Shown here piece by piece: positions 3,089 to 55,959 of a DNA stretch of 64,000 nt. Positions within the stretch are counted from its first letter, which is position 1; every line of letters starts with the position of its first letter. Origin of the DNA: an uncultured Clostridia bacterium (GTDB taxonomy: Bacteria; Bacillota; Clostridia; Christensenellales; UBA1242); the NCBI GenBank assembly GCA_947630405.1, contig CANRHL010000001.1, positions 92,971 through 156,970 of the forward strand, in the 5' to 3' direction. The translations under genes and the position numbers were made by a program. Under the pieces are notes generated by a model. That model saw only the letters and a program-made list of their open reading frames with translations. It had not been told where the DNA came from and did not search any database.

Positions 3089-3145
3089 AAAGTCGTAAAA
3101 TAAATATTTTTGTCTAGTATTGGCAAAATAAAAAGGGGAAGCATT

Positions 3146-6100
3146 TTGAAGGGGAAAATTAAAGTTTTTAGTAAAATAATTATTGCATTATTTGCGGTGC
3201 TTACCGCAGTTGTTTTAGTTGCCTTTGCGTTTAAAGATAAGGGGGCAAAAGGTTACGCCGAGTTTATTAAGAATGGCAACGATTATAGTGGCTTTACCGA
3301 GCAGGGCATGATTTTGTCGGTTGAAAAGGTTGGCGTTAGTGCGCAAGACGTTCAAAACTATGTGGATAATTCCGGCACTAGTTTTAAAACCCCGCTATAT
3401 TCAACCCCACTTGCTCCTGGAGAGGAAGAAGAACAAAAGAAAAATAAAGAAATTGAAAAAATGCTTGTTCCAGGCGGTGCATATTACTATAAAAATTTAA
3501 CCAACCAACTTGCAAGTGCTGGCAACTCAGAAAAATATGTTGTAAATAACGGCGAATTCGTTATGCTTAACAACCGCCTTTCTAACGGGCAATATATTAA
3601 CGACCAAATTAGTGATGCCTACACAGAAGAAGGCCCCGCAGTTAAAATGAGCGAAGCTATTTTAATTACGTTCGGTGGATATTTTAGATATACCGATGTG
3701 ACTGGCAATACCAAGTTCGGCAAGGCTGGGCAAGTTAATGATATGCAAGGAAGCATCGATGCACAAAATAGCGGCGCCAACATGGAGAATCTTATAGTTA
3801 ACATAACAAAGGATGGCCAGCCGCTTGAAATGACCAACGTTATTAGAACTTATAACACCTATTATCAGGATTTTGGGCTTATAATTCCGCAATTTCAAGA
3901 TGGTGAACAGAGCACCGAAGGGCATTATGTTTTAAACTTTAGTTATAGATACGATGGCAACCCTAGCTCTAACAATGTTTTTGAATTTAATTTGTTGTTT
4001 AGGTCGTCTTATCATGCAACCGAGTCGGTTGGCGAAGATCAATACACCGCCGAGCCAACAATATCCAAAGCGACAAGGGTCATAAATGAATCTAATAACC
4101 AATTTGAATATTTCTTAGGCAAGCAGGCTGACTACCCAGTTTTAGTTTACGATTACACTAAATATCACATGAGTTTCACGCACACTGCAAATGGTGTGGC
4201 AACAACTTGCGAATATACTGCCACAATTAATTCAACTGGCGAGTTATCCGCCACCCTTACTGCCGACATTCCTAACCAAACAGACGATGAACCGATATCT
4301 TACAACATGAGCAAATTTACGCGTGGCCGCAACAACTTTGTTGTGTTCGTGTTCACCGAAATGGGCAGTTACGATTTCCACTTTACCTACCTTTATGAAA
4401 CGATTGGCGAAAATGGCGCAATCAATTTAACATCTAGTGGAATGAACTTGCAGGTGGACGACCTTAGTTTGTCAATTTACGGACACGAACTTAAATATTC
4501 CCCAGTTGGCTATAGGGAAGCTGAATTGAGGAAAATAACTTTGTCTGGCAAACAGGGCGAGGCGGGGGAAAACCAGCGTGCCGATTTAATTGTGCCGGGC
4601 GATATTGAATATATTAACGCGCATAGGACAACTCAATTAAACGAACTTGGCCCTAAATTTGAATATAGAAATGATTCAACTGCAATGGTTGGCAGCGTAA
4701 TTGAAATGCTTGATGCAAACATTCAAACTCAGAGCGAAGAATATTTAACAAGCGGAGAGGGCATTACTTCAAAGGATGATGACATTATAGAGTTTGTAAG
4801 AGAGATAAACGAAATTAAAGACCAAGCAACAATTGACGCGGCAACAGAACAAAAGGTTGCTGATTGGCTTAACAACAAAATTGACTTTGTTAAAACTAAC
4901 CAGCCAAACATTTGGCTTGAAACTAATAATGCAATAAATAGAGATGCAAGTTTTTACTACACATCAACCAACAAAAACAATCTTTTAACTAAGCCTTCTC
5001 AAGATGGTGGAAGCCGCGTTCCACAAGAGCAACAGAAGTATATTAACACAACCACCTTCTCAACGGCAGGCTATTATTTAGTGTTTATTTATAACGATGT
5101 CTCAAATGAAAATGATTATTATCAAGTGTTTGCGTTTGAATATTCAGATGAAGTTATTGTGCCAAACATCGTTGAACAAAGCACAGAAGAATACGAGGGA
5201 AAAGTTATTGGCAGCCGCGGGTTTACAAACAAAAATGTTGAAATTTATTGGCAAAAACCAGGCGTGTTCGAAAAACAAGTTCAAGGCAAATATTATTATA
5301 TGTTGGATAGATATATTAACAATGAAATAACATTAGATTACATTGTTAGCCACGGCATTCAACAAAACTTAACTAGCGGGGACAAAAACATCGTTGGCAA
5401 CGAAGTGCCTGAAGGGCACGGCGCAACATTTGTTGTTAAAATTGAAGGCGATGGGCAGAGCTATAGAATTTTCACTATCGATAGGCAGCCAATTTCGGGC
5501 GTTGGGCTTTATGAGGTTAGGACAAACCCTGCAACTTTTGGCGGAGTGTATTACACAGTTAGCACGGATACAAACGGGCAATATGTTCAACTTACAAACG
5601 TTATAACAAACAGTTTGGCAACACTTAATTGGAACGACAAAAATAGTGGCGCAAAAATTACCGCACAATACACTTACACTCCGTTCACAAAATACACACC
5701 AACTGCCGATGACAATTCAAAAAAGATTAAAATGGTTGAAAACACCCCATCAAACGAACTATGGTTTACCACCAACTATCAGCTTGGGCAAACCAGTTCA
5801 ATTTTTGAGGACATTACAAAACCAACCGCGCTAAACGATATTTTAAGCGATGAAAATTTAATAAAAAATCAGGGCATATACCTATTTACCTTAACAGATG
5901 ATGCGGGCAACCAAACCAAATTTATGTTTGTTGTTGACGATACTGAATCCTACTTTTATGTGTATGAAGATGGCAAGGAAGGAGAAGGCAAATATTTAAC
6001 CGCATCAAGCGAGATGTATGCCTCCAGCACCAAAGTTAGAGTTAGCACGCACAAAGCCATTAACTTATTTTCAAGCACGGATGTAAGCACGGATATTGAC

Positions 6101-9100
6101 GAAACGGCAGACGACAAAAATAGGCAAGACCTTCTTAAAATTATATCTAACTTGAGTAGTGATGTTGAACTTAATAGCCTTAATTATTACACCGATGCCG
6201 GACACAGAAGTAACATTAGAAATTTGTTTGATAGCACCGGGCAGGGCACACTTGATTACTATTTAAAAGTTAGGAACAGAAGCCTTACCACATACGACAA
6301 TTTGGATAACTATAAGGGTGAGAACTCAATTGGCGAGATTTCAAGGATAAACAACTCAATTACAATTGAGCACAACGAAGAAGACGGAACTTCAACCGTG
6401 AGATTCCTTTATATAATTGGCGAAAATCAAATTTCTGCCGGCATAAATTTAGACCCAAGTAACACAAGTTACATTAGAAATTCAAGGTCATATTTGTTAA
6501 TTGAAATTAACACGGATAATTCACGTGGGTTCGTTTACTACGGCAACACCGATTTCACATCCAACCAAATCCCAGCAGATGGGAAATCTTCATCTGACGT
6601 GATTAGGTTATACACGGGCAACTCGCTAAACAATTTGGAAGCAACTTCGGACAACCATATTGCTTTTGTTTGGAACACAAGCAACAACGGCTTTACCGTG
6701 GAAAGCATAACTTATTCTTACTACACACTTGATGTTACAAATTACAGTGAGCAAACGGCATTCTACACACTTTCGGAAGAAGATGTTGTGCTTTATCAGT
6801 CGGGCGGTGGTTACGAAAAAGGCGCTTACACCTTTGATAACGGCAACCGCGCCTTTGCGCCAATTAGAAAAATTGGCAGGCAAACACAAGAGGGACTTTA
6901 TATAATCACGCGTACTTATACCGAGGGTGGCAATTTTGAAAAAGACGACCGAGAAAAACATTATTGGTTTATTGTGGATAGAAACGGCATAAAAACTTCG
7001 GGCATTAGCGGGGATAGAATAAGCACTAATTTGCTTAAAGACGAAACCACATTCAATTCATTCGGCCTTGTTGGCACAGAACTTGGCTCGGTTAATTTTG
7101 TGGAAGGCAAGGAACTTGTTGGGCCAATTGACTATAACGTTTATTTCACCACCAACAAACTTCCTGCAACACTTTCTATTCCAAACAACAAATATTATCA
7201 ATACGGCACAGGAGCAACACCAAATGTTTCTAACTACGCAATGGGTTTATTAAATGTTAAAGTGGTGTTTAAAGATACGGCATATCAACTTCAAAACATT
7301 CCAGGCTTTGCCGCAAGTAGCAACTTGTTAATTTATAGCGGCAATGCAGAAGTTAAAATAGACGCACAAAACAACCAATATTTTAATGTGGATTTCTATG
7401 ACTATCTCTCCAACTATAGCGATGTGCGCGTTAGAGATAGATTTGTAAATAGCGGAAACAACCACGATTGGATTTGCTTGCCGGGCGACTATGTTGTTAT
7501 TATTTCAGATAATGTAAGGAGCATTGAATATCCAAACGGCGGCAGCCACCAAATGGTGTTTGGCTTTAGGGTTAGCCCTAACGCACCGGCAGCAAATTTG
7601 GGCGCAATTTCAGAAAAAGTTTCAGGCGGAGAATTAACCTTTAGCGAAGGCGATAAACCAACCTTGAACGCGGACGGAAGTTATTCGTTAACCACAAACA
7701 AAGAATATATTGCGGTTGAATTGCCTGAATATGTTGTTGTGGAAAATTATTCCTATGAAAATAGGCAAAACGCATTGTACGCACAACTTGATGTTGAATA
7801 TTTGGTTGTAAAGAAAAATGGTGGTTACTATTTCAATTATAATCACGGAGATTTAGGCGAGGCAACGCACGACCTAAACAACGACCCAGATGTGGAAAAT
7901 AATAGATCTGGTCAAAACATTGTTTCGCGTAAAATTTATTTGAACACCGATTTAAGAAAAGCCGACGGCTCAATCAATTTAGATAATATCAGTACGCCAA
8001 TCAATTTTGAAATTACTGTAAGGTTTAAATTATATAACGCAAGATCAAGCGGATACGAAGAATTTTTAAATAGTTACTATTCATATGATGAAAATGGAAA
8101 TTTGCGGGATTATTATTACGCAACTTACAACATCACAATAGATAGGCAAGCACCAATTAATAACACTAATTATTTAGAGCAAAACGATGCACTTGTTAGC
8201 TATTATAATGAGGAAAATGGCACAAATAAAATGATTATGCCATATGCAAACGATAACCCTGTTTACTTCGCTAATAGATATGAAAGTTACTATTCAAGCA
8301 ACAAAAATCAAGCCAAAATTTATCCGTTTAAAGTTAGTTCAAGCACCCATTTTGATTTAACCGATGTAGAGCGAATTTTCTATAGGGCATACACATCTAA
8401 TTTAAACTTGCCAGTTGTGCCGGATGCCGAGCCAACTTGGCATGAATATAACCAGCGTGCTGACGATTTAACCTATGGTGATATAATTGGAGAATATCGT
8501 AGGGACCCTAACTTTAATATTGAAAACATTACCTATGTTGAAATGTTGGAAATAGATAAAGCGGGCAACGCAACGCAATATGTTGTGTTCTTTGATGATG
8601 GCTCAAATAGTTATGACGATTTAAACTTAGTGTTCAATGTTCGCACATTAAACAACAAACTCTTCGAAAATGATAATTTCACAATTAATCTATCCGAAAA
8701 CCGCACGCAAGATTTAAGCATATTTAATATAAGTGTGCCGCAAGATTTGGACGATGAAGAAGCCGTTTATGGTTCATATATCGACAAATTTTATCATTAT
8801 GAACTATTAAATTTGGCAACCAACACGCGCGTTAGCAAAAACACAAATTTAACAACGCAGTTCACAAAGAGCGGAATAATTTTGGATATTGTAAACTTAA
8901 TTAAAGATAGTGGCGAAGGCAACTACCGCCTAACCTTAATGAGCCGTACGCACACTGTTACAATAAATTTAAACTATTATAACGAAGCCACATTTGATGA
9001 AACCTTAACTCAACTAGACCCTGGCGCACTTGTGGAAGGCGTGGGCGAAAACACTCAAATCAATTTAACCAAAGCCAAAAAGGAAATTATTGAAGGAAGC

Positions 9101-11695
9101 GGAGTTTACAACTATGCAACCACAATAATAATTAGGTTAAACGGCGCGTTATATGATGAATACACCTGCAATCCAAATGACAATTATAGTTACACAAACC
9201 GCCAAGGCGATAAAGTGGAAATTATTTCCCACTTGGATGTTAACGGAAACTATCAAATTGAAATGATTGATGTTATGGGCGCGCGAAAAACCTATTACGA
9301 ATTTAACATTTCGCACGAGCCATATTCAATTTCGTTTGGCCTAGATGGGAGCGCAAATTATTATAAAGACCCTAACGGGAGCGACCCTTATTACTATTCA
9401 TTCAATCAAGCCAACATCTCTTATAATAGCGATTACTATTTGGCAACAATAACCTACTCAATTCAAAGCGAAGGCGTATCTCATATTATAAGCGGCAGTT
9501 CGGCTGGTGGAAATGCGGGCGGCATTAAAGTTGTGGACATCACAACCGAAAACGGCTTTACCATAATTAAACTTATTCCATATTTAAACGGAAATTCTCA
9601 AGGCGACCTTTTAACTGCCGAAATTAACATTTACAGGGAAGATAACACGTTTAGTTACACCTATCTTGTTAGGGTGGATAACCGATTGGGCGAAGTATGG
9701 CTGAGAAATGGCAAGGGTGAAAATTGCGATTATAGAGTTGATATCAATGCGGACCACACTCAAACCGAGAGGCCAACCAACACCTATTCCGGCACTTCAA
9801 CATTAAGTTGGGAAGTTAGCGAAAGCAATCAATTTGATTATGTTTACACTTTATATGAACAACTAGACACCGATGAAATTGTTGCCACCAACTTAAACGG
9901 AAGGCAAAATTACATTATTGATACGCGTGAAAATAGCAAGGGCATATATAGATTTGTTGTGGATGTTTATGCAAAAGGCATATTAGACCTTAACAATATA
10001 ACCGAGCAAGAGAAGTCGATATATTATCTTGGCAACAAGGTTTACACCTTTGTGGTTACCGCGAAATCTGACCAATTGTATTATGTGAGAACAGAAAATT
10101 TTGTGGTTATGGACGCGAACTCAACCTTTAAATGGAGCGAATTGTTTGCAGCAGATTCTGGCTTAAATTTAAGGCAGGATGAGAAGGATGCAATTTTAAA
10201 TTGGTTCCATTTGGGAGACGATTATAACATCATTGAAAACAAGATGTTCCCGCTTTACATTTCCAATGAGAACTTGGAAGTGGTGGTTGAGCCAGACCTT
10301 AACGCAACAAAACTTGCCTATCCAGCAATTGTGAACGGAAATTATTCTTTAGTGTTGTATAAAATTAGCACACCAAACTATAATTATTATATAGCCACAC
10401 TTAAAGCACCGGTTACAAACAATTTAGTGGAGAACTTCCAATTGGTTAGTTCAAGCACAACAAGGACGCTTGAAAACAACACCAACTACACCTTTGCAGG
10501 AAGTGCACAAGAAAGCTTTAGCCTAAACGCAACTCAAATTAGATACTCTAGCTTGTTTGAAAAGAAAAACACAATTTTGATGTACGTTTATTATAACGAC
10601 ACCTTTGTTAAAATGGTTGAATTTAACACCGATAAAATTAATTTTGACATTTTAGGCAATGGGCGCTACAGTTTTGTGTTTAAAGATTTGGCTGGCAACA
10701 CTCACTATTTTGGGCAGGGTGGTTCAACACTATATTTAACCATTTTGCGTGAAGTTGTTGTGTTCGTAAATGGCGAAGCACCAATTGAATACGCTTATTA
10801 TAACGATAAAGTTGAACTTTCAATTTACAATCCAGGCATGTATTTGCAATCCACTGAATCCGCGCCAATAAACGTAACCGCAACTCGTAACGGGCAAGTT
10901 TACACGCCTGAAATTGCTTCGTCAAAATACACGTTTAGTGATTATGGAACTTATAGGGTAACCGTTACCGCCACATATGTTGATAGCAATGGGCAGAGTT
11001 ATCCACTTACAAAAGTTTTCTCGTTCACAATTTTGAACAATGGCGAGGCAAGGCAGTCAATCGATTTAACCTCACTAAACGGCTACGAATTGATTAAAGC
11101 AACAAACAACTTAAATGAAGATATAACCGATGTTTTAATGGGCATTTTAAACCTAAACAACAGTTCGGAGGGCATGTTATTAACTTACGATAAACTGCTT
11201 GAAAACAGTGCAACACTTAACATAACGGCAGGCAAGCAAACCTTTACGCTAACATATCGCGCAAAAGCGGATATTTACCCAGAAAGAACGTTTACTTTTG
11301 CATTTGTTATGAACAACGAAGTTCCAACAATAGAGTGTTCATTAGCGCCGGGAGATAGCAACAACAAAGGCTTTAGCCTAACATTTAATCCGGCAATAAT
11401 TTACGAGCAAGTTGGCGAAAGTGCAGTTTACTTAAACAACACCCTTCTTGCCACAATTGATAAAGATGTTGCCGATTCAGTTGTTTCGTTCTACATTTCA
11501 CAAAAAGAATATGGTTCAGGCGATTATTACATTTCGCTAAGAACAAAATCGGGTGACATTATTTCACAATACATGGTAACCCTAACCGAGCCATTGAACG
11601 TTTGGGCAATAATCATTATTGTTGTTGTGGTGGCGGTGGTTATCACAGTTGTTACCATAATTATAGTTTTAAGAACAAGGATGAAAATTAGATAA
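3146..11695 (+). CDS. giant (2849 aa) surface protein with an N-terminal signal-anchor and a C-terminal TM anchor; no domain recognised
   Basis: Uninterrupted 8.5-kb ORF. There is no ATG before residue 67 of the track translation, so a TTG start is required. I prefer TTG 3146, 6 nt after AAAGGGGA (3132-3139), over TTG 3110. N-terminus KGKIKVFSKIIIALFAVLTAVVLVAFAF. C-terminus VWAIIIIVVVVAVVITVVTIIIVLRTRMKIR. N/Y/T/S-rich beta-type composition. Confidence 0.85.
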   Translation: MKGKIKVFSKIIIALFAVLTAVVLVAFAFKDKGAKGYAEFIKNGNDYSGFTEQGMILSVEKVGVSAQDVQNYVDNSGTSFKTPLYSTPLAPGEEEEQKKNKEIEKMLVPGGAYYYKNLTNQLASAGNSEKYVVNNGEFVMLNNRLSNGQYINDQISDAYTEEGPAVKMSEAILITFGGYFRYTDVTGNTKFGKAGQVNDMQGSIDAQNSGANMENLIVNITKDGQPLEMTNVIRTYNTYYQDFGLIIPQFQDGEQSTEGHYVLNFSYRYDGNPSSNNVFEFNLLFRSSYHATESVGEDQYTAEPTISKATRVINESNNQFEYFLGKQADYPVLVYDYTKYHMSFTHTANGVATTCEYTATINSTGELSATLTADIPNQTDDEPISYNMSKFTRGRNNFVVFVFTEMGSYDFHFTYLYETIGENGAINLTSSGMNLQVDDLSLSIYGHELKYSPVGYREAELRKITLSGKQGEAGENQRADLIVPGDIEYINAHRTTQLNELGPKFEYRNDSTAMVGSVIEMLDANIQTQSEEYLTSGEGITSKDDDIIEFVREINEIKDQATIDAATEQKVADWLNNKIDFVKTNQPNIWLETNNAINRDASFYYTSTNKNNLLTKPSQDGGSRVPQEQQKYINTTTFSTAGYYLVFIYNDVSNENDYYQVFAFEYSDEVIVPNIVEQSTEEYEGKVIGSRGFTNKNVEIYWQKPGVFEKQVQGKYYYMLDRYINNEITLDYIVSHGIQQNLTSGDKNIVGNEVPEGHGATFVVKIEGDGQSYRIFTIDRQPISGVGLYEVRTNPATFGGVYYTVSTDTNGQYVQLTNVITNSLATLNWNDKNSGAKITAQYTYTPFTKYTPTADDNSKKIKMVENTPSNELWFTTNYQLGQTSSIFEDITKPTALNDILSDENLIKNQGIYLFTLTDDAGNQTKFMFVVDDTESYFYVYEDGKEGEGKYLTASSEMYASSTKVRVSTHKAINLFSSTDVSTDIDETADDKNRQDLLKIISNLSSDVELNSLNYYTDAGHRSNIRNLFDSTGQGTLDYYLKVRNRSLTTYDNLDNYKGENSIGEISRINNSITIEHNEEDGTSTVRFLYIIGENQISAGINLDPSNTSYIRNSRSYLLIEINTDNSRGFVYYGNTDFTSNQIPADGKSSSDVIRLYTGNSLNNLEATSDNHIAFVWNTSNNGFTVESITYSYYTLDVTNYSEQTAFYTLSEEDVVLYQSGGGYEKGAYTFDNGNRAFAPIRKIGRQTQEGLYIITRTYTEGGNFEKDDREKHYWFIVDRNGIKTSGISGDRISTNLLKDETTFNSFGLVGTELGSVNFVEGKELVGPIDYNVYFTTNKLPATLSIPNNKYYQYGTGATPNVSNYAMGLLNVKVVFKDTAYQLQNIPGFAASSNLLIYSGNAEVKIDAQNNQYFNVDFYDYLSNYSDVRVRDRFVNSGNNHDWICLPGDYVVIISDNVRSIEYPNGGSHQMVFGFRVSPNAPAANLGAISEKVSGGELTFSEGDKPTLNADGSYSLTTNKEYIAVELPEYVVVENYSYENRQNALYAQLDVEYLVVKKNGGYYFNYNHGDLGEATHDLNNDPDVENNRSGQNIVSRKIYLNTDLRKADGSINLDNISTPINFEITVRFKLYNARSSGYEEFLNSYYSYDENGNLRDYYYATYNITIDRQAPINNTNYLEQNDALVSYYNEENGTNKMIMPYANDNPVYFANRYESYYSSNKNQAKIYPFKVSSSTHFDLTDVERIFYRAYTSNLNLPVVPDAEPTWHEYNQRADDLTYGDIIGEYRRDPNFNIENITYVEMLEIDKAGNATQYVVFFDDGSNSYDDLNLVFNVRTLNNKLFENDNFTINLSENRTQDLSIFNISVPQDLDDEEAVYGSYIDKFYHYELLNLATNTRVSKNTNLTTQFTKSGIILDIVNLIKDSGEGNYRLTLMSRTHTVTINLNYYNEATFDETLTQLDPGALVEGVGENTQINLTKAKKEIIEGSGVYNYATTIIIRLNGALYDEYTCNPNDNYSYTNRQGDKVEIISHLDVNGNYQIEMIDVMGARKTYYEFNISHEPYSISFGLDGSANYYKDPNGSDPYYYSFNQANISYNSDYYLATITYSIQSEGVSHIISGSSAGGNAGGIKVVDITTENGFTIIKLIPYLNGNSQGDLLTAEINIYREDNTFSYTYLVRVDNRLGEVWLRNGKGENCDYRVDINADHTQTERPTNTYSGTSTLSWEVSESNQFDYVYTLYEQLDTDEIVATNLNGRQNYIIDTRENSKGIYRFVVDVYAKGILDLNNITEQEKSIYYLGNKVYTFVVTAKSDQLYYVRTENFVVMDANSTFKWSELFAADSGLNLRQDEKDAILNWFHLGDDYNIIENKMFPLYISNENLEVVVEPDLNATKLAYPAIVNGNYSLVLYKISTPNYNYYIATLKAPVTNNLVENFQLVSSSTTRTLENNTNYTFAGSAQESFSLNATQIRYSSLFEKKNTILMYVYYNDTFVKMVEFNTDKINFDILGNGRYSFVFKDLAGNTHYFGQGGSTLYLTILREVVVFVNGEAPIEYAYYNDKVELSIYNPGMYLQSTESAPINVTATRNGQVYTPEIASSKYTFSDYGTYRVTVTATYVDSNGQSYPLTKVFSFTILNNGEARQSIDLTSLNGYELIKATNNLNEDITDVLMGILNLNNSSEGMLLTYDKLLENSATLNITAGKQTFTLTYRAKADIYPERTFTFAFVMNNEVPTIECSLAPGDSNNKGFSLTFNPAIIYEQVGESAVYLNNTLLATIDKDVADSVVSFYISQKEYGSGDYYISLRTKSGDIISQYMVTLTEPLNVWAIIIIVVVVAVVITVVTIIIVLRTRMKIR

Positions 11696-12435
11696 TGAAA
11701 AACGAACATGTGGAAAAGGTTCAAATCAACGACACCGAAATAGACTTCACCGAAGTGGTGCCGATAACTGAACTTATGCGTTTAATTGAAATTGCGGCAT
11801 TTAATCATGCAGATAATATTGGGCTTGACCATGCGTCAATGCTCAAATTTAGCAACGTTTTTTGGGTGGTTACAAAAATAAAATTGCACATAAAAGACGA
11901 TGTGCGCGCCCACGAAAAGATTTCCGTTAAAACGTGGACACACCCACCAACCATGATTAGGGCAATTAGGGATGCGGAAATTAAATGCAAAAACAAAGTT
12001 AAAGTTAAAAGTTCTAGTGAGTGGTGTTGCTTGGATTATGACACTCATAAAATTAGGAAATTTTCAACAATAAAATATCCCGACCTTGAAATGTTGGATA
12101 ACCGCGAAGTGAACTTAAAACCTTTAAATTTTAAGGCGGAAATGACAGAAAAAAATTATGTTTACACCAAAATTGTTAGGCCAACCGACATCGACCTTAA
12201 CATGCACACCAACAATTTAAAATATAATTACATTGCCCTTGACGCGTTTACTACAGACGAGTTTAAAGAGTTTAGAATAACAGACTATGAAATTCACTTT
12301 TTAAACGAAAGCCACGAAGGCGATAAAATTGACGTTTATAAACTGAAAAAGGGCAGAGTGTATGTTGTTGAAGGCAGAACTCAAGAAAAACCAATTTTTA
12401 GGGTGTTCTTAAAGGTTAAACCAAACAAAAAATAA
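11695..12435 (+). CDS. acyl-ACP thioesterase family protein
   Basis: Double hot-dog sized (246 aa). FWVVTKIKLHI and DIDLNMHTNNLKYNYIALDAF resemble the acyl-ACP thioesterase family consensus. The ATG overlaps the giant gene stop (TAATG). Confidence 0.65.
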   Translation: MKNEHVEKVQINDTEIDFTEVVPITELMRLIEIAAFNHADNIGLDHASMLKFSNVFWVVTKIKLHIKDDVRAHEKISVKTWTHPPTMIRAIRDAEIKCKNKVKVKSSSEWCCLDYDTHKIRKFSTIKYPDLEMLDNREVNLKPLNFKAEMTEKNYVYTKIVRPTDIDLNMHTNNLKYNYIALDAFTTDEFKEFRITDYEIHFLNESHEGDKIDVYKLKKGRVYVVEGRTQEKPIFRVFLKVKPNKK

Positions 12436-12581
12436 AGGCACATAGAGTGCTTTTATTTTTTTATTTTATTATTGATGTTAGATTGCTTTATATTTTTTAT
12501 TTTAACTACTCATTTTTTGTTATTTTGAGTTGGGATTTTTATTGTGTTGTTCCACTTGTTTAATTTTTTATTGCGTTGTGT

Positions 12582-13832
12582 TTATTTTATTTCAATTTCA
12601 GTTATGTTTTCAGTTATTTTGTTGCCAACCACATCAAACGATAACTGCATTGCCTTTTCCTCAATTTTTTCTTCCAAATCTTGTGCGATGGCTTTAACAT
12701 TTTCTTTAAATTCCTCTCTAATTTCCGCCTTGTTCACTTCCAGGTGTTTGCTATCGGCAGATTTTAAGCGCAACTGAACTTCCACTTCCGGCTTTTTCTT
12801 TAATTCTCTATAGAACGCCTCGCCTTCGTGCGATAGGAAGAAAACGCCAACAATGCCCTTTTTCTTTGAACTTAGAATTTGGTAAGCAGCACGTTTGCGT
12901 GCGCCACCAACTATGTAGCCAAGTTTTTTTGAGTTAGTTTCCACAAACACATTGTAGGCTAAAATCTGGCCTTTGTTATCTAGTATCGTTATGCCGTCAA
13001 AGTTGAGCATGCGAACAAATAGGTCGGAGTAAACGCGCAGTTTTTGTTCGTTATAACTCTTGCTTTGGGCAAAAAGTTTGCTATAACTAATTGGCTCTTT
13101 TAGCCAAATGCCGTCCTCAAACAGGCCGGTATCTTTATAATCTTTATCCACAACCACGCAAATTGTGCCGTTAATATCGTTAACCGCACTTGTGAAAATG
13201 TTGTAATACATATTTTTCATATCTTGCAACTTGCGTTGCGTGGTGCGTAATTTTGAAAATGCTGCGTCAACAAAGGCACGAATTTCGGTGGCGTATGGGC
13301 TGAATTTGGATTTATCTAGCGAAAAGTTTACAATCAAGTTTCTGCCCGAAACCGAGTGCAATTGCATGGTGTAAAAGTTAAGCGGGCGGGCAAGTATGCA
13401 GTTAATTTTTGGCTGCTTATCTTTAATGGTTACATTCTCTTCAAGGCTTCTAATAAAGCCCTTATCCTTAATGCTGCCAAAAGACATTGCAAGCCCGTAA
13501 GTTATGGACTTTTCTTTAATATTAATAAACACGCACCAATCGTTACGGCACACGGCAAGTAAACTTTTCATGCGCATATTAAAGTTTGCGGCATCTTTAT
13601 CTTCAAAAATTGTAATGATGTGCGACTTTGGAATGCTTTTAATTAGCGCCTCAATGTTATCGGTGAACACAAGTTTTGGGCGAATTAGGTTGCCTTCTTC
13701 CTTATAATACATGATTTCGTTAAAGTTGTTTAGGAAGTGGCTCATAACAAGCGGCGGAAAATTAGCAAACTCTTGTTCAAAGAAATTTGTTACATTATCC
13801 TTGGCGTTGTCGAAAAAAATCATCTCATCCAT
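12582..13832 (-). CDS. DAC (diadenylate cyclase / DisA_N)-like domain protein with an unknown ~200-aa N-terminal domain and a C-terminal coiled coil
   Basis: In order: GTICVVVD, FDGITILDNKGQILAYNVFV, GGARKRAAYQI, VFFLSHEGEAF. These parallel the DAC motifs GALIVI, HDGAVI, GTRHRAA, VSEETG. No SD at the start. Confidence 0.55.
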   Translation of the reverse strand: MDEMIFFDNAKDNVTNFFEQEFANFPPLVMSHFLNNFNEIMYYKEEGNLIRPKLVFTDNIEALIKSIPKSHIITIFEDKDAANFNMRMKSLLAVCRNDWCVFINIKEKSITYGLAMSFGSIKDKGFIRSLEENVTIKDKQPKINCILARPLNFYTMQLHSVSGRNLIVNFSLDKSKFSPYATEIRAFVDAAFSKLRTTQRKLQDMKNMYYNIFTSAVNDINGTICVVVDKDYKDTGLFEDGIWLKEPISYSKLFAQSKSYNEQKLRVYSDLFVRMLNFDGITILDNKGQILAYNVFVETNSKKLGYIVGGARKRAAYQILSSKKKGIVGVFFLSHEGEAFYRELKKKPEVEVQLRLKSADSKHLEVNKAEIREEFKENVKAIAQDLEEKIEEKAMQLSFDVVGNKITENITEIEIK

Positions 13833-13840
13833 TTAAAAAG

Positions 13841-13869
13841 AATATAACAATAATTTAAAAAATTTGCAA
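13841..13869 (-). promoter_or_regulatory. putative promoter abutting the start codon of the DAC-like gene
   Basis: Minus strand: TTGCAA (13869-13864), 17 nt, TGtTATATT (-10 at 13846-13841), 8 nt, ATG (13832). Confidence 0.4.
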
Positions 13870-13914
13870 ATATTTTAAAAATTTTTCTAAAAAAAACCAA
13901 AAAAAATCTCAATT

Positions 13915-14160
13915 TTATGGTTTTAACTGAGATTTTAAATAAATTATTTCGTTTTTTAGCCGGTTGCACTCGGCCGTTTTTGCCTTTAACTCTTTAAGCA
14001 ATTTTTCGTTGGTTAGGTTCAAATTTAAAATTTCGGCTTTGGTGTCCAACTCAAGTTTGTGTTTAACCACGCCCATAATTCCTTTGAACAGGGCGGTGAT
14101 ATCGTCATCGGTTATGCTTGGCGGCATAACATAAATGTTGCAATCCTTTTTTTCCTTCAT
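13915..14160 (-). CDS. hypothetical small coiled-coil protein (81 aa)
   Basis: ORF only. C-terminal heptad-like LKELKAKTAECNRLKNEIIYLKSQL. Upstream of and same strand as the DAC-like gene. Confidence 0.45.
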   Translation of the reverse strand: MKEKKDCNIYVMPPSITDDDITALFKGIMGVVKHKLELDTKAEILNLNLTNEKLLKELKAKTAECNRLKNEIIYLKSQLKP

Positions 14161-14276: not shown

Positions 14277-15119
14277 ATGAATTATTTAATTTCAAAGTTA
14301 AATTGTTTTGTTTTGGAACTTAAATTAAAAATAGATGCTAACGCAAAATATAAAATTGAAAATCTTGAAAATGAGTTTTACACTTTTATTGTGAACGATA
14401 AACCTCTTTTCGTTAATTTTTTGGAAAAAAATAAACACCTAACAAAAATTGACTATTTAGGGGATTCATTTTTTTTCTTATTTTTTAATAGCAATGAATT
14501 AAACGATGTTCAATTAATAAAATGCAACAACGCTGACGTTTTAATTTCGTTTGGCGATAGGCTAAAATTGTTTGTTGATGGGCAGCCTGCGGTGGATTTT
14601 GAAAACTTAAATTTCTGTTACTCTCATCAAGAAACTTTTAACGCTTACACCATACTTTATTTTGAAGGGGTGCGTAAATTTTTTGTGCTTTTAAAGGGCA
14701 GGGAAGTTTGTGCGTATGATTTTTTTGATGAAATTAACAAGGGCGAAAATGAAATATATTTTATGGCAAAACTCTTTGATAGTTTAAATCACGGCAGGGT
14801 TTATCATGTTGAAAAGGGCGAGTTTAATTCATATCTTGTTTATCTTGACGAGTTTGAACTTAATTTAAAGCCCGAGTTCTGCCCGCTTGTGTTTCTTGAT
14901 TGCTTGCTTGCAAAAAACTATAAATACTGCGCAAATTTATTAGATGAAAATATCCGCCCGAGCGAGGAAAAACTAATTAAAGATTTTTTTACCGAATTTG
15001 ATTATTATTACCCGCTAAAACAAAATGCGGTTGCACTCTTTAAAAAAAATGCCCCTGCGGGCATTTACGAATTTGAAACTTTAAACCAGCTAATTACTAA
15101 CATCGTTTGCGTTAGGTGA
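14277..15119 (+). CDS. hypothetical protein (280 aa), no recognisable motif
   Basis: Long ORF in stop-rich AT-rich DNA. Its 3' end overlaps the convergent ATPase gene by 30 nt. Confidence 0.5.
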   Translation: MNYLISKLNCFVLELKLKIDANAKYKIENLENEFYTFIVNDKPLFVNFLEKNKHLTKIDYLGDSFFFLFFNSNELNDVQLIKCNNADVLISFGDRLKLFVDGQPAVDFENLNFCYSHQETFNAYTILYFEGVRKFFVLLKGREVCAYDFFDEINKGENEIYFMAKLFDSLNHGRVYHVEKGEFNSYLVYLDEFELNLKPEFCPLVFLDCLLAKNYKYCANLLDENIRPSEEKLIKDFFTEFDYYYPLKQNAVALFKKNAPAGIYEFETLNQLITNIVCVR

Positions 15120-21007: not shown

Positions 21008-22465
21008 ATGAAGTTTAATGCAGTTGAAACTAAAAAAGATATTGAACAAAAACTGCACAATAGTAGCGATTTAAAATCTCGCACCGTGCAGTTTTTTGAA
21101 AAGACAATTGTGTTAATGTACATTGCCGATATAACCGACAATGTTTTGTTTAATCAAACTCTAATTGCGCCAATAACAAATTACAACAAGCCGCTTGAAA
21201 AAGACGTTATTACAGAACTTAAAGAAAAGGTGCTGGCAAGCCATGAAGTTATTGAATATGAAACCATTGAGGAAGCAATGGACGATATGCTTTCGGGCAA
21301 GAGCATCGTTATTGTGGATGGCGAAGAAAAAATTTTAGGCCTAGACACCGAAAAAATTACCACTCGCCCGGTTATGGAGCCACCAACAAGCGTGGTGGTT
21401 AAAGGTCCGAGAGAAGGGTTTACTGAAAGCATAAAATACAACATTGCGCTAATTAGAAAGCGCGTTAGAACGCCCGATTTGGTTGTGAACATTATGGATA
21501 TTGGCGAACTAACTAAAACGCAAGTTGGCGTTGTTTATTTTGATTCGGTGGCGGATAAAACCGTGGTTAGCGACATTGAAAAAAAGTTAAAAAAAATTAA
21601 AATTGATGGCGTTCTTGATGCGCACTATTTAATTTCATATTTGCAGCGAAATTCAAAATCCATGTTCAAGCAAATTGGTGATGTTGAAAAACCCGATGTG
21701 TTGGTTGGCAAAATGCTTGAAGGCAGAGTTGGCATAATTGTTGACGGCTCGCCAATTGTTTTAACCATGCCATTTGTGTTGGTTGAGGATTTGCAAAATA
21801 GCGATGATTATTATAGCCAGCCAATCCGCGTTGGATTTGTGCGAGTGCTAAGGTTGTTGGGTGTAATTTTGGCAGTGGTGTTGCCGGGCGTGTTTATTGC
21901 GCTTGAAATTTATCACTATAAAATTATTCCAACCGAATTTTTAGTAACCATTATGAACACGCGGCAGGGAATACCTTTTTCGCCGTTTGTGGAAGTGTTT
22001 TTCTTGGTTGTGCTATTTGAAATTTTATACGAAGCCAACTTACGCATGCCGCAATATTTTGGTATGGCAATGAGCATTGTGGGCGCGTTAATTTTGGGCG
22101 AAACCACTGTTAATGCTGGGCTTGTTAGCCCGCCCGCCGTTATGATTGTGGCGCTATCTGGCATAACGTTTTACATTGTGCCAAGCCAAGCGGCACAATT
22201 TAGTTTGCTTAGGCTTGCCGCGTGCGTTATTGGGGCTTGCTTGGGGCTTTATGGAATGCTTATATTTTGCGTGTTTATTTTATCGTATCTATCAAGTTTT
22301 GATAGTTACAAATCCGCCTACCTTGCACCAACCGCGCCATACATTGACCGCGACCAGCAAGATAACTTTAAGCGCGATTTAATTAAGAATATGAAAAAGC
22401 GGCCAAAGAGCATTGCAAACAATAGCAAAAATGCAGATAGGAGGGGCGATGAAAATCAATTATAG
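21008..22465 (+). CDS. gerAA: spore germination protein, GerA-family A subunit
   Basis: Soluble N-terminal domain plus about 5 C-terminal TM helices. The motif run PREGFTESI...NIALIRKRV...G and the operon context with B and C subunits. Confidence 0.85.
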   Translation: MKFNAVETKKDIEQKLHNSSDLKSRTVQFFEKTIVLMYIADITDNVLFNQTLIAPITNYNKPLEKDVITELKEKVLASHEVIEYETIEEAMDDMLSGKSIVIVDGEEKILGLDTEKITTRPVMEPPTSVVVKGPREGFTESIKYNIALIRKRVRTPDLVVNIMDIGELTKTQVGVVYFDSVADKTVVSDIEKKLKKIKIDGVLDAHYLISYLQRNSKSMFKQIGDVEKPDVLVGKMLEGRVGIIVDGSPIVLTMPFVLVEDLQNSDDYYSQPIRVGFVRVLRLLGVILAVVLPGVFIALEIYHYKIIPTEFLVTIMNTRQGIPFSPFVEVFFLVVLFEILYEANLRMPQYFGMAMSIVGALILGETTVNAGLVSPPAVMIVALSGITFYIVPSQAAQFSLLRLAACVIGACLGLYGMLIFCVFILSYLSSFDSYKSAYLAPTAPYIDRDQQDNFKRDLIKNMKKRPKSIANNSKNADRRGDENQL

Positions 22466-23570
22466 GCAACTTTCAATTTTGGTTTTTATGAGTTTTATTG
22501 CACTAAAATGTTTGGCATTGCCCGGCCTACTTTACGTTGAAAGCAAAAACATGAGCATGGTGGTGACTCTTGTTTTGATGTTTGTGGATTTTATTTATGC
22601 ACTGCTCATAATTGACCTAATGAAAAAGAGCAACGAAAAAAACATTTTAGATTTTATGACGCGTTGCTTAGGTCCGGTTTTGCCGCGAATTTTTATGGCA
22701 GTTTTAATTGTGAAATATGCGCTTGTGGTTGCGAACATTTCAAAAGGACTTGAATTTTTTGTGGTGGAAAATTTTTATAATTCACTAAATTGGATTGTGT
22801 TTGTGCTGCCGCTAATAATTTTAGTTGGCTTTATGCTTTATAAGGGCATTAGAAACATTGCCCGCGTTAGCGAACTCATCTGTTGGGCAATATTTTTTGG
22901 CTGCTTATATATTGCGTTAAAGTCAATTGCCGGCATTGACGTTTTGAATTTTTTGCCCGCCTTTCACGAGGGGGCATTGCCACTAATAAAAAGTGGTTAC
23001 ACGCACATGAGCTGGTTTGGCTCAAGCACATTTTTGTTGATGCTTTTTGGCAAGGTGGATTTTACAAACGAGAAAAAATTGCAAGTTGTTAAATATTCAT
23101 TTTTAGCAATTGCGCTTGTTATGTTTGTGCACCTTGTGTTTTACGGGTTGTTTGACGTAACCAGCCCTACGCACAATTTTTGCATTAGTGATATTAGCCA
23201 ATATTCAAGCGGGCAATCCTCAATTGACGAACTCTCGTGGTTGGTGGTGTCATTATGGGTTACTGCACAAGCCGTGCAACTTGCCTTATTTGGCTATGCA
23301 ATGATACAAGCCATTAAATTTACATTTAATATTAAGAGCAATGTTTTCCCTATTTTGTTTGTTTTAATTTACATTTTTGTGTGGAGTTTTGTTGGCGAGC
23401 AAACGGTTGGGTTGGAGAGGATTTTCCTATCGCACTTTTCGTCAATTTTAACCATATTCACGGCGTATGTGATACCGCTGATTTTGTACGTTGGTTATGT
23501 TGTTGAGCGGGGAAAGGGTAAGCCAAAAAAGAAGGGGGCTAAAAATGAAAAAGTTAAAGTCAATATTTAG
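22449..23570 (+). CDS. gerAB: spore germination protein, B subunit (APC-type permease, 10 TM)
   Basis: The ATG at 22449 follows AGGAGGGG and overlaps the A subunit by 17 nt. Polytopic membrane protein beginning INYRQLSILVFMSF, typical of GerAB. Confidence 0.8.
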   Translation: MKINYRQLSILVFMSFIALKCLALPGLLYVESKNMSMVVTLVLMFVDFIYALLIIDLMKKSNEKNILDFMTRCLGPVLPRIFMAVLIVKYALVVANISKGLEFFVVENFYNSLNWIVFVLPLIILVGFMLYKGIRNIARVSELICWAIFFGCLYIALKSIAGIDVLNFLPAFHEGALPLIKSGYTHMSWFGSSTFLLMLFGKVDFTNEKKLQVVKYSFLAIALVMFVHLVFYGLFDVTSPTHNFCISDISQYSSGQSSIDELSWLVVSLWVTAQAVQLALFGYAMIQAIKFTFNIKSNVFPILFVLIYIFVWSFVGEQTVGLERIFLSHFSSILTIFTAYVIPLILYVGYVVERGKGKPKKKGAKNEKVKVNI

Positions 23571-24774
23571 CCCGCGCAAAATTATAATTATTTTGTTAAT
23601 TATTGTTGGCATTATAACCGTGCCCGGCTTAAATATGCCCGCAATGAGCGAAACCGAAGCAATTGTTACCATGCTTTGCATGGACAAGCAGGATGAAAAC
23701 ATTGTTGTTAGCGCAACCGTGTTATCTCCGGGTCCAAACAATGTGCCGAACTATCAGGTGTTCACTGGCAGCGGGCAAACGCTTAGCAATGCGGTGGATG
23801 CGGTGTCGCTAACCATTGGCAAAGAAATGGGCTTTGCACAGTGCGAAGTTATGGCGCTTGGCGAAAATTTGTGTGATATTGGCGTTATGCAAACGCTTGA
23901 TTTTATGACGCGCACAAAAAAGGTTGGCAGAAATGCGTATTTAGTAAGTTTTGCGGGCGATATTAACGATTTTAGCGAAAGTATGTCAAATTTAAATAAA
24001 GAAAAATCACTTTCGCTTGAAAAAATTTTAAAATTTGACGAGCGCTATACTCTTATTAAAAATAGCAACATAGAAAATTTTTACATTGGCTATTTTAACG
24101 ATTTATCGCTTGGCGTTATGCCAAAAGTTGAAATAAAAAACACGGAGGACGACAACGCAATTGAAGTGGCAAGCGGCGGGCAATCTGCGGGCGATGAGGC
24201 AGAAACAAAGAGCGGCGAAAAAGAAAAAAAATATTTTGTAAACGATGGCAGCATATCAATTTTTAAAAAGGGCAAACGCGTATTTGACGTGGATAGCAAA
24301 ATGGTTAAAAAAGCAAACTTTTTTGTGAATAACGAACAAGAGGGCGCGTTAGTTATTGAAAATGTTGACGACGATTTATACACCGATGCAACCGTGATTG
24401 TGGATGTTGTTAGAAAACAAAATGAAATTGGTGTGCGTTTTGATGGCGACACTCCTGTGTATAGAAACCACATGGAAATTGTGGTGTTTGTTGAGCAAGT
24501 GCTTGGCAATCAGCCAAAAGAAAATTTGTTAAAACGCAACAAAGATTTTTTAACTAAAACTCTACTTGAACGCATTAAAGAAAAAGTGCAAAACGACATG
24601 CAAGATTGCATTGACTTTTGCAAAACCAACAAAGTGGATTTAATTGACGCATATAAACATTTTTATAAACTTACAAACAAAAAGTTTGAAGAATATTTAA
24701 AAATTACAGGCAAAGAAAATTATTTAGATAACATTAAATTTGAATTTGATATAAAAGTAAGCAACGAATATTAA
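23545..24774 (+). CDS. gerAC: spore germination protein, Ger(x)C-type C subunit
   Basis: The ATG at 23545 follows GAAGGGGG and overlaps the B subunit. Third position of a gerA-type operon and about 409 aa. The N-terminal hydrophobic segment has no lipobox Cys (IIVGIITVPGL). Confidence 0.7.
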   Translation: MKKLKSIFSPRKIIIILLIIVGIITVPGLNMPAMSETEAIVTMLCMDKQDENIVVSATVLSPGPNNVPNYQVFTGSGQTLSNAVDAVSLTIGKEMGFAQCEVMALGENLCDIGVMQTLDFMTRTKKVGRNAYLVSFAGDINDFSESMSNLNKEKSLSLEKILKFDERYTLIKNSNIENFYIGYFNDLSLGVMPKVEIKNTEDDNAIEVASGGQSAGDEAETKSGEKEKKYFVNDGSISIFKKGKRVFDVDSKMVKKANFFVNNEQEGALVIENVDDDLYTDATVIVDVVRKQNEIGVRFDGDTPVYRNHMEIVVFVEQVLGNQPKENLLKRNKDFLTKTLLERIKEKVQNDMQDCIDFCKTNKVDLIDAYKHFYKLTNKKFEEYLKITGKENYLDNIKFEFDIKVSNEY

Positions 24775-53124: not shown

Positions 53125-53772
53125 TTATAATTTAAGGTTTATTTCTGAAACAAGTTTATCAATTGTTTCTTGTATTCTTGATTTGCCATTCAACAAATCA
53201 CCTTTGTGGTCTAGGTAAGAAATGTAATCATGTTTTGGAAAGCAATAATAATCAAAATCAACATTAGAATATTTATTAAGTATAGTTATTTCAAATATTA
53301 AACGTGGAGTAGGGTCAATTATAAATTGCAATGGGTTTTGATTTCTGCGGTCCATATCAATTTTGTTAGATGCCACATGATAATCAATTATTGTTTGTGT
53401 AAAGTTATTAAGATTTTCAGCACAATCGGCCAAAATTAGCAAATGAGCGCCGCCCATCATATTGTCAGTAGCAATATCCATAACCGGTTGCTGGATAAAA
53501 TAAATTGAATATCTCCACTTTTCATTTAAACTGGTGGATGCGTTCAATTCACCTTTGCCTAGCCCAAAATCTTGTAAAATGTGAATTTCACGCCCGTTGT
53601 CGGCTTCTTGCTTACATAAAGTTTCAAATAATTGAAAGTCATCGGTTAAGACAATAGTGCCTTTTGAACTAAAACCAAAAGGTACACGGTCGTCAGAATG
53701 AATGTCATGCATAAATTTTAAAAAGTTTTGTTGGGTTATATCATTTCTTCCGGTAAATGAAACGTTTTTCAT
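53125..53772 (-). CDS. hypothetical protein (215 aa)
   Basis: The ATG at 53772 follows AGGAGGAATT; no motif recognised. Confidence 0.6.
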   Translation of the reverse strand: MKNVSFTGRNDITQQNFLKFMHDIHSDDRVPFGFSSKGTIVLTDDFQLFETLCKQEADNGREIHILQDFGLGKGELNASTSLNEKWRYSIYFIQQPVMDIATDNMMGGAHLLILADCAENLNNFTQTIIDYHVASNKIDMDRRNQNPLQFIIDPTPRLIFEITILNKYSNVDFDYYCFPKHDYISYLDHKGDLLNGKSRIQETIDKLVSEINLKL

Positions 53773-53875
53773 AATTCCTCCTAAGTTTAAAAAGTATATC
53801 ATGTAAAAATAAATTTGTCAATAATGAATTATCAATTTGTTTGTAAAAAATTTTAAAATAAACTATACTTTTTAT

Positions 53876-54706
53876 ATGAAAAATGATGTAAATGAAGCCG
53901 AATTGAAGGACGAACTTTTATTTTGCCTTTTTAAAGATGCCGAACTCCCTGTTAAAACGGACTTAAGCGAGCAAGATAAAGATAAATTTTTGCACGCACT
54001 CTTTTTAACGCGGGCGGAAGATAGTGTGGAAGAAAAACTTTTGGCGGTGCAAAATAAATATTTAAGTTTAAAAAATAAAAAATCTTGCGTTGACGTGAAT
54101 AGTTTAAAATTTAAAAATAATATTGCCTATGTAGATAACATTTTAAATTTAAATTGTGATTTGGTTGTTGTGATTAGTGAGAACTTGCTTGAAAATGTTA
54201 ATAAGTTGTTTTCCCATAGCGTGGATAATGAACTTATCTTAAATGCGGGGCTAGAATTTAAGGCGGATTTAATAAAGCAACTAAAGGCAAACAACGGGCA
54301 GATAGATTACTCTAAACCATACATATTAAGTGGCTATAATTTAAATGCAAAAAATATTGCAAAAATAATTTATAACAAAAAATTATTAAATTTAATCAAT
54401 TTTAACGAAAAAATTAACAAAAATAATGAAAATTACATTAAATTTTTAAATATTTTAAAAAATAATATAGATTTTTTATTTAATTTTATTTTTTCCAACA
54501 ACATAAAATCGGCCGCGTTTTGCTTTAACTTTGAAACCGCCCCGCAAGCGAACGGACCTGCCGCTGACGGCGCGAGCGAGTTGAAAGCGAAAGCCAATGA
54601 AGAGAGCAAAAACGAAAAATTAATTGCTGCTATAAATAAAGAAATAACAAATTATATAATTTTAAAAAATAAAAAGAGCAAAACCAAATTAATTTTTAAT
54701 TTATAA
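53876..54706 (+). CDS. degenerate macro-domain-like protein (protein-ADP-ribose hydrolase family relative lacking the consensus motifs)
   Basis: Collinear with the family pattern as I recall it: LLAVQNKYLS; NIAYVDNILNLNCDLVVVISEN (vs wqGDITxLxvDAIVNAAN); SVDNELILNAG (vs CIDNaIHxxAG); ILSGYNLNAKNIAKIIYN (vs ITxGYNLPAKYViHTVGP); FCFNFETAP (vs isTGvfxfP). Confidence 0.4.
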   Translation: MKNDVNEAELKDELLFCLFKDAELPVKTDLSEQDKDKFLHALFLTRAEDSVEEKLLAVQNKYLSLKNKKSCVDVNSLKFKNNIAYVDNILNLNCDLVVVISENLLENVNKLFSHSVDNELILNAGLEFKADLIKQLKANNGQIDYSKPYILSGYNLNAKNIAKIIYNKKLLNLINFNEKINKNNENYIKFLNILKNNIDFLFNFIFSNNIKSAAFCFNFETAPQANGPAADGASELKAKANEESKNEKLIAAINKEITNYIILKNKKSKTKLIFNL

Positions 54707-54766
54707 ACATAAAAAACAAATAAAAAAGCAAACGGAAAATTAAAAATTTTTATTACGTTTGTTTTT

Positions 54767-55228: not shown

Positions 55229-55274
55229 ACTGAATATATTATTTTTTTTATCTTTTTAGAATTATTTATTAAAA

Positions 55275-55895: not shown

Positions 55896-55959
55896 TTGTA
55901 ACTCCGCGCTAATTATAACACGAAAAACATATTTGTCAATAGGAAAAATAAAAAAGAGC

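Follow-up and report, generated by a model that had tools for sequence, protein, structure and literature searches.

A predicted diadenylate cyclase fold joined to a new N-terminal domain in an unannotated protein family represented in Christensenellales

In most Firmicutes, the synthesis of cyclic di-AMP (c-di-AMP) is essential or near-essential; to our knowledge, the known synthases all belong to one of a few architectures, namely CdaA, DisA, CdaS, CdaM, DacZ and, recently, DS-2C and PanS. Here we studied a 416-amino-acid (aa) protein, the target, encoded in a 64,000-nucleotide (nt) stretch of an uncultured Clostridia bacterium (Christensenellales, UBA1242; assembly GCA_947630405.1, contig CANRHL010000001.1, positions 92,971 to 156,970), hereafter called the window. 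Judging from its predicted structure, the C-terminal domain of this protein is very probably a divergent member of the diadenylate cyclase (DAC) fold. In characterised DACs, the active site is defined by two motifs, DGA and RHR (D171GA and R203HR in CdaA), and the formation of c-di-AMP requires two DAC domains arranged head-to-head, an arrangement that is blocked by inhibitors of the GlmM type (PMC8573169). PanS, in which DGF and GGR replace DGA and RHR, is an active DAC with 3'3'-cUA or c-di-AMP as its product, and mutation of its DGF/GGR abolishes the activity (Ragucci et al., August 2026 preprint). As a recent survey of defence DACs picked its candidates through Pfam signatures, it would have missed the family described here, and we found no description of this two-domain family in the literature searched.

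The gene and the domains of its product are laid out as follows.

12582..13832, reverse strand: open reading frame (ORF) of the DAC-like two-domain protein, 416 aa plus stop (from the ORF list, homologs and model)
13248..13832, reverse strand: N-terminal alpha/beta domain with linker helix, residues 1-195 (from a predicted local distance difference test score, pLDDT, of 85-98 and invariant columns)
12798..13247, reverse strand: predicted C-terminal DAC-fold domain, residues 196-345 (from Foldseek, Pfam DAC, hhalign and column conservation)
12585..12797, reverse strand: Lys/Glu-rich C-terminal tail, residues 346-416 (from the alignment, tblastn, pLDDT and composition)

A preliminary description of the sequence had proposed four DAC-like motifs in canonical order, with two altered catalytic signatures, DGI for DGA and RKR for RHR. 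Both proposals held up across the family. The motifs GTICVVVD (residues 222-229), FDGITIL (278-284), GGARKRAAYQI (309-319) and LSHEGEAF (333-340) are spaced by 57/33/22 residues, as against 42/32/19 in CdaA; in the AlphaFold model, the 15 additional residues between motifs 1 and 2 form an added helix at 262-277. The motif anchors are (N/H)221-G222 in strand 1, D279-G280-I281 (equivalent to DGA), G309-G310-A311-R312-K313-R314 (RHR) and S334-H335-E336-G337 (SEETG). Since the sequence contains no hydrophobic segment (maximum KD19 = 1.03), the protein is predicted to be soluble and to have no transmembrane segment.

The architecture had also been described as unlike that of CdaA, DisA or CdaS, and this proved correct and extends to the defence DACs DS-2C and PanS. 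With CdaA/DacA the target shares the DAC alpha/beta fold, the four-motif order, the Asp-Gly, Arg-x-Arg and Ser-x-acid positions and, putatively, head-to-head pairing. Unlike CdaA (PF02457 plus PF19293), it has no N-terminal transmembrane helices and no PF19293 match, carries DGI/RKR, the extra helix and a 195-aa soluble N-terminal domain, and has as its neighbours not cdaR and glmM but a thioesterase gene, two ORFs of 81 and 280 aa, and a P-type ATPase gene. Structurally, the target is closest to DisA (9y4s, 3c1y and 7y0d, at probability 1.0), likewise a soluble multi-domain DAC; the DAC domain of DisA, however, is N-terminal and followed by a helical linker and a helix-hairpin-helix (HhH) DNA-binding domain, whereas that of the target is C-terminal. 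No Pfam match to HhH or the DisA linker was found in the target or in 106 aligned relatives (20-43% identical to the window protein), on which the conservation counts below are based. CdaS, a soluble DAC of spore-formers with an N-terminal regulatory extension, gives the best match of the family profile among Protein Data Bank (PDB) sequences (2fb5, E = 0.1), yet it is ~200 aa long with only two regulatory helices, where the target has a 195-aa alpha/beta domain, and it is sporulation-specific, whereas the target promoter looks sigma-A-type. DS-2C, a DAC of a variant of the cyclic-oligonucleotide-based antiphage signalling system (DACNG plus DACNH), also places a C-terminal DAC behind a putative sensor, and relatives of the target, too, lie in defence islands; in contrast to the target, DS-2C is ~550 aa long and its DAC passes Pfam, and the target has no DACNG or DACNH match. 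PanS, of the Panoptoo system, resembles the family in its non-canonical motifs (functional DGF/GGR; DGI/GGAR in the target) and in two-gene operons within defence islands, but it is ~150 aa long, has no extra domain and is partnered by an S2TM-beta membrane effector; members of the present family are ~350 aa long and their cassette partner, if present, is an unrelated 430-aa soluble-looking protein. In the window, no effector lies adjacent to the target. Unannotated so far, the family combines a DAC fold with a new N-terminal domain, and for each known DAC type the accessory features that define it are missing here.

Conservation and fold of the two domains

A homolog search returned 421 proteins with 60-77% identity, whose sources are Clostridia, Onthoplasma and Christensenella-type gut metagenome-assembled genomes and all of which are labelled 'hypothetical' and lack a Pfam domain. 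Using an exhaustive profile search across 1.84 billion representative proteins, we found that the superfamily comprises at least 511 clusters at 50% identity, mostly of ~350 aa and spanning both domains, despite which it escapes the Pfam and NCBIfam models that catalogue DACs. Residues 1-345 are tightly conserved in the close homologs, with no variation at any motif residue. In 36 of these homologs, G222, D279, G280, G309-G310-A311-R312, R314, S334 and G337 do not vary, and in the 106 relatives these positions are either invariant or conserved to at least 94%. Over the whole protein, the positions invariant in the 106 relatives are E45, E46, G222, D279, G310 and R312, with Y43, P52, K89, W99, G113, H221, G280, F296, G309, A311, R314, S334 and G337 conserved in at least 90% of them. 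In the C-terminal half, the conserved positions coincide with those that the preliminary description had matched to DAC motifs. The motif set is therefore not a product of chance, as its residues are near-invariant in close and divergent relatives alike.

At the positions of the catalytic motifs, the Asp of DGA (D279) and the first Arg of RHR (R312) are present in 106/106 relatives, the Gly of DGA (G280) in 105, and the second Arg of RHR (R314) in 100, the remainder having Lys. The Ser of SEE (S334) is kept in 103 and an acidic residue, Asp or Glu, occupies position 336 in 104. At position 281, the Ala of DGA is replaced by Ile in 88 and Val in 13 relatives and retained in 4, and position 313, the His of RHR, holds Lys, Arg, Ser or Thr. 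The target gene is under strong purifying selection.

Profile comparisons pointed repeatedly to DACs. The Pfam DAC family (PF02457) matched the window protein at E = 0.048, aligning residues 276-328 with profile positions 52-102, and when the relatives were scanned singly it was matched by 20 of the 106 (E < 0.1; best E = 1.1e-5), whereas every other Pfam family was matched by no more than two. The Pfam check suggested in the preliminary description thus came out in part as hoped, in that DAC was matched recurrently and collinearly; each individual match lay below threshold, and the DACN-type families were unmatched by the window protein. When the family profile was run against PDB sequences, DAC proteins made up five of the six best matches (2fb5, DisA 3c1y/4yxm and DacA 6gyw/6gyy; E = 0.1-0.4), with collinear alignments (HGtLivv/HGALIVV, DGItvf/HDGAVLV and GGARkRA/GTRHRAA). 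Single-sequence and narrow-profile searches of PDB sequences gave nothing relevant, and DAC was reached only with the 106-member profile. Against a CdaA profile of 34 members, hhalign gave P = 1.9e-3 for the whole protein and P = 4.7e-4 to 9.3e-4 for the C-terminal domain alone, with all four motifs aligned. The automatic UniRef name of a Bacillus fungorum relative, WP_099684107.1, is 'DAC domain-containing protein'. Taken by sequence, the evidence for DAC is weak but consistent.

Structure prediction gave a sharper picture. AlphaFold supplied with the 36 close homologs was confident for the N-terminal domain alone (pLDDT 30-45 in the DAC half); this model was replaced by one from the 106 diverse sequences, which reached a mean pLDDT of 89.5 and a predicted template modelling (TM) score of 0.81. 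With the latter, the DAC resemblance survived the comparison with solved structures: the top 18 Foldseek matches in the PDB were exclusively DisA or CdaA (DisA of M. tuberculosis, T. maritima and M. smegmatis; CdaA of B. subtilis), at probability 1.0 and E ~1e-3, and the 19th fell to a probability of 0.06. Their TM scores were 0.47-0.50, normalised to the 150-residue CdaA domain, in an output that did not show which of the two domains matched. DisA, CdaM and CdaA also ranked first in Foldseek with the lower-quality model. No match to the target was found in the viral structure library BFVD or in PHROGs.

The N-terminal domain, residues 1-195, was modelled as a well-folded alpha/beta domain (pLDDT 85-98) and carries the family-invariant signature Y43-x-E45-E46-(G47), P52, K89, W99 and G113. 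It had been described as ~200 residues without a recognisable motif, and we likewise obtained no match for it in Pfam (including DACNG and DACNH), NCBIfam, PADLOC, PHROGs or PDB sequences. A DACNG/DACNH-type sensor was considered and rejected, the window protein being unmatched at E <= 10 and the single match among the 106 relatives (DACNH, E = 0.057) being at chance level. By hhalign, the N-terminal domain has no detectable sequence similarity to the DAC half (P = 0.26), and a relation to the N-terminus of CdaA found no support (P = 0.17). Residues 8-170 have the same order of secondary-structure elements as the DAC domain (a-b-a-b-a-b-b-a-b-b-b). From the model, the N-terminal domain may be a degenerate duplicate of the DAC fold, a reading without sequence support.

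The C-terminal tail had been described as a charged coiled coil. It is indeed charged, with K or E at 25 of 71 positions, and is modelled as a single helix at only moderate confidence (pLDDT 60-78 for the helix, 51-78 for residues 346-416). A conserved coiled coil was rejected, however, as the tail varies in length and sequence and was recognisable by tblastn in 2/80 related loci; it is an add-on specific to the closest relatives, outside the family architecture.

Solo genes, two-gene cassettes and pheS-pheT loci

Genes of the superfamily occur in two modes, either solo in the chromosome or as part of a two-gene cassette in defence islands. In the window the gene stands alone, as a core gene within the solo clade. 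It is encoded by 123 species-level Christensenellales genomes, and in related loci with enough flanking sequence the order is conserved: a giant ~2,800-aa protein, an acyl-ACP thioesterase, the target, the 81-aa ORF, the 280-aa ORF, a P-type ATPase and rubrerythrin. The target, thioesterase, 280-aa ORF and P-type ATPase occur together in 26 loci, and single flanking genes in 45-47. Across the 26 fully syntenic loci, the median identity of the target core is 68.6%, compared with 78.7% for the P-type ATPase, 58.5% for rubrerythrin, 53.5% for the thioesterase, 39% for the 280-aa ORF and 37% for the giant protein. The rest of the window is ordinary chromosome, with spoIIR, sleB, ypeB, a gerA operon, pheST, rmuC, dnaB/dnaI-like genes, rplA, cysS and ABC exporters.

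Among distant relatives, a gene of 430-441 aa follows or overlaps the DAC-like gene in five of six sampled loci (L084:9058-10353, L086:1961-3253, L087:8075-9400, L088:8050-9369 and L089:8076-9377). Two of these partner proteins were compared and are 48% identical, and the partner family comprises at least 659 clusters. The partner matches phrog_27609, a family of unknown function, and has no Pfam or PADLOC match. The neighbours of these loci include a complete type I restriction-modification (R-M) system, a dGTPase with an integrase, a Tn7-like element downstream of smpB, a patatin, and HipA, HicB and Zeta toxins. The DAC-like gene and its partner look like an undescribed two-gene cassette. 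In 56 metagenomic loci with enough downstream sequence, the partner is adjacent in 18 and lies elsewhere in the locus in 5; neither the window nor any of 80 Christensenellales loci contains it. PADLOC-DB v2.0.0 (E <= 0.01) gave no match for the window protein, two distant relatives and two partners.

A further setting was found in 17 metagenomic loci from termite gut, rumen and similar sources, in which pheS-pheT is followed at once, on the same strand, by the DAC-like gene; the distance between pheT and this gene ranges from -12 to +86 nt, with a 12-nt overlap in some loci (examples are L119, L130, L133 (556-4954), L147-L150, L152, L153, L155 and L158). This suggests that the DAC-like gene is co-transcribed there with an essential aminoacyl-tRNA synthetase operon. 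Average-linkage clustering places every Christensenellales gene, every pheT-linked gene and the other solo genes together in one cluster, apart from most cassette genes, which form separate clusters of greater divergence. The window protein shares a median identity of 44% with the pheT-linked genes, compared with 29% for the cassette genes. The intermediate P0121, 43% identical, is solo too and lies among housekeeping genes. In one locus (L090:813-2913), a 409-aa homolog, P0126 (31% identical to the target), adjoins a phage tail-tube gene (Phage_TTP_14), and some family members may be carried on prophages.

Proposed activity and alternative readings

The best explanation of the whole, which we hold with moderate confidence, is a soluble, cytoplasmic two-domain DAC-fold enzyme that is regulated by its N-terminal domain and encoded by a solo core gene serving ordinary physiology. 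In the proposed mechanism, a conserved sigma-A-type promoter belonging to the gene would drive its transcription and give a leaderless mRNA. Two DAC domains, one from each of different protomers, would meet head-to-head as in characterised DACs, each holding one nucleoside triphosphate and a metal ion via D279, R312, R314, S334 and D/E336. The paired domains would then form a cyclic dinucleotide, for which c-di-AMP is the likeliest candidate, with another product possible given the Ala-to-Ile and His-to-Lys changes; as the specific product, c-di-AMP is a tentative choice. By analogy with the control of CdaA, CdaS and DisA, the N-terminal domain would be a regulatory module in which binding of a ligand or partner permits or blocks the head-to-head pairing. 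Because the gene is solo, syntenic and part of the core genome, its role would be one in ordinary physiology, as opposed to that of a mobile defence gene. On balance we take the target to be an active cyclase, and the two-domain protein is probably a regulated nucleotide-signal synthase of a new kind.

Several observations weigh against this proposal. The Pfam DAC match of the window protein scores 13.7 bits against a cutoff of 27, no sequence-only test passes a curated threshold, the hhalign probability against CdaA is just 14-22%, and a full-length CdaA hidden Markov model gives no match to the target at E <= 1. The register of the last motif with SEETG is ambiguous, hhalign inserting a gap there, and the TM score to solved DACs is ~0.5 at most, with a root-mean-square deviation of 4.5-6.6 A. 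Family-wide, the His of RHR is never present among the relatives, Ile or Val takes the place of the DGA Ala in 101/106 and the Thr preceding RHR is Ala. The 64-kb window contains no c-di-AMP phosphodiesterase, receptor or riboswitch; an Rfam scan of it gave no match, and no canonical DAC or cdaA was found within it. Such sub-threshold scores, together with structural support that comes from a predicted model, would fit a spurious resemblance, in which short motifs coincide on an unrelated alpha/beta fold. We consider this highly improbable, as Foldseek with two models, Pfam, the PDB-sequence profile, hhalign and the UniRef name converge on the same family and register, and no other fold exceeded a probability of 0.1 in Foldseek. 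Less easily set aside, although still fairly unlikely, is a pseudo-enzyme, whose DAC-fold domain would bind a nucleotide or cyclic dinucleotide without synthesis and serve as a receptor or regulator. The family-wide replacements of His, Ala and Thr, a divergence large enough for the Pfam DAC model to fail and the absence of cyclase partner genes nearby would all agree with it. Yet the Asp of DGA, both Arg residues and the Ser-x-acid pair are kept in 94-100% of members whose identity is otherwise 20-30%, and in the defence-island cassettes the protein sits where two-gene modules usually have their signal-generating enzyme. Inactivity does not follow from the Ala-to-Ile and His-to-Lys changes, because PanS is catalytic with DGF and GGR; by this analogy, the altered signatures would be compatible with catalysis, and they might be tied to a different substrate or product. 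In the choice between an active cyclase and an inactive binder, the conserved Asp, Arg and Ser-x-acid residues and the PanS precedent make us lean towards activity.

The cassettes raise a different question, that of a stranded anti-phage component, i.e. a relic or solo variant of the cassette that is still defensive, for example as a constitutive decoy signal like that of PanS. Relatives with the 430-441 aa partner stand beside type I R-M, dGTPase and integrase, Tn7-like, patatin and HipA/Zeta genes, and the frequency of the adjacent partner in metagenomic loci and its phrog_27609 match speak for this origin. Against it, the partner is missing from the window and all the Christensenellales loci, the target is syntenic in a housekeeping neighbourhood and more conserved than most of its neighbours, it clusters with the pheS-pheT-linked solo genes and not with the cassette genes, and neither target nor partner is in PADLOC; we regard a stranded component as quite unlikely. 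A more far-reaching proposal would make the family a new synthase class by joining three elements, an N-terminal domain that is a degenerate DAC, a role as principal cyclase and an undescribed two-gene anti-phage system. Within this proposal, pairing or gating by the N-terminal domain might make the active site asymmetric and yield something other than c-di-AMP, and the Christensenellales and pheS-pheT-linked protein may be the principal physiological cyclase, replacing or supplementing CdaA. The three elements taken jointly seem unlikely. Should the N-domain-regulated enzyme that we favour prove active, surveys of cyclic-dinucleotide signalling miss a whole enzyme class whose regulatory domain is new. 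The family lends itself to a natural comparison of one enzyme in housekeeping and in defence use, and is a tractable entry to the second-messenger physiology of the poorly studied Christensenellales, a major group of gut anaerobes.

Promoter, companion gene and neighbourhood

The following features border the target gene.

13841..13869, reverse strand: sigma-70-type promoter, TTGCAA-17 nt-TATATT with an extended -10 TG (from a consensus scan and the alignment of related loci)
13915..14160, reverse strand: 81-aa helical ORF directly upstream of the target (from the ORF list and related loci)
12427..12461, no strand assigned: A/T-flanked hairpin between the target and the convergent thioesterase gene, a possible bidirectional terminator (from a terminator-like pattern only)

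A promoter of its own, abutting the ATG, had been proposed for the gene, and comparison of related loci bears this out: the -35 TTGC and the TGnTATATT element are invariant in 11/11 aligned loci, and in the window the -10 box ends 8 nt upstream of the ATG. In nine of the 11 loci, a leader of ~20 nt contains a Shine-Dalgarno-like GAGTGGTG or an ATGGGG element. The window (13833-13869) and its nearest relative, L006, are without this leader when aligned with the upstream regions of L008-L021 (alignment A4). As the ATG lies only 8 nt past the -10 box and the leader is missing, the mRNA is apparently leaderless in the window genome. The window and L006 have lost the Shine-Dalgarno-containing leader that is present in other Christensenellales loci.

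The 81-aa ORF noted upstream in the preliminary description was recovered on the same strand in 46 related loci, ~150 nt upstream of the target and with a median identity of 62.7%; in L001 its counterpart is a 90-aa gene. It is a conserved companion only within the Christensenellales clade, and it has no significant match in Pfam, NCBIfam, PADLOC or PHROG. Divergent from this pair lies the 280-aa ORF (14277-15119, forward strand), which is syntenic in 45 loci at ~39% identity and has no Pfam, NCBIfam, PADLOC or PHROG match; at its 3' end, 30 nt are shared with the convergent gene for the P-type ATPase. On the other side, the giant ORF of 2,861 aa (3110-11695, forward strand) has a TTG start and a hydrophobic C-terminal anchor, and at 11695 its stop codon and the start of the acyl-ACP thioesterase gene overlap. 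A syntenic counterpart of 2,739 aa has no recorded Pfam match. The giant ORF is fast-evolving, with ~37% identity across loci in which the target has 69%.

Farther away, the stretch at 53125-55895 is low in GC (26% at 54001-56000, against ~35% elsewhere) and holds several ORFs without a Pfam match (53125-53802, 53837-54706 and 55275-55895); it could have been horizontally acquired. Sporulation and germination genes, including spoIIR, a sleB-type hydrolase gene, ypeB and a gerA/gerB/gerC-type operon, occupy 139-2849 and 21008-24774. From the presence of these genes, the source organism, a gut bacterium, is a spore-former, even though its close relatives carry the label 'Candidatus Onthoplasma'.

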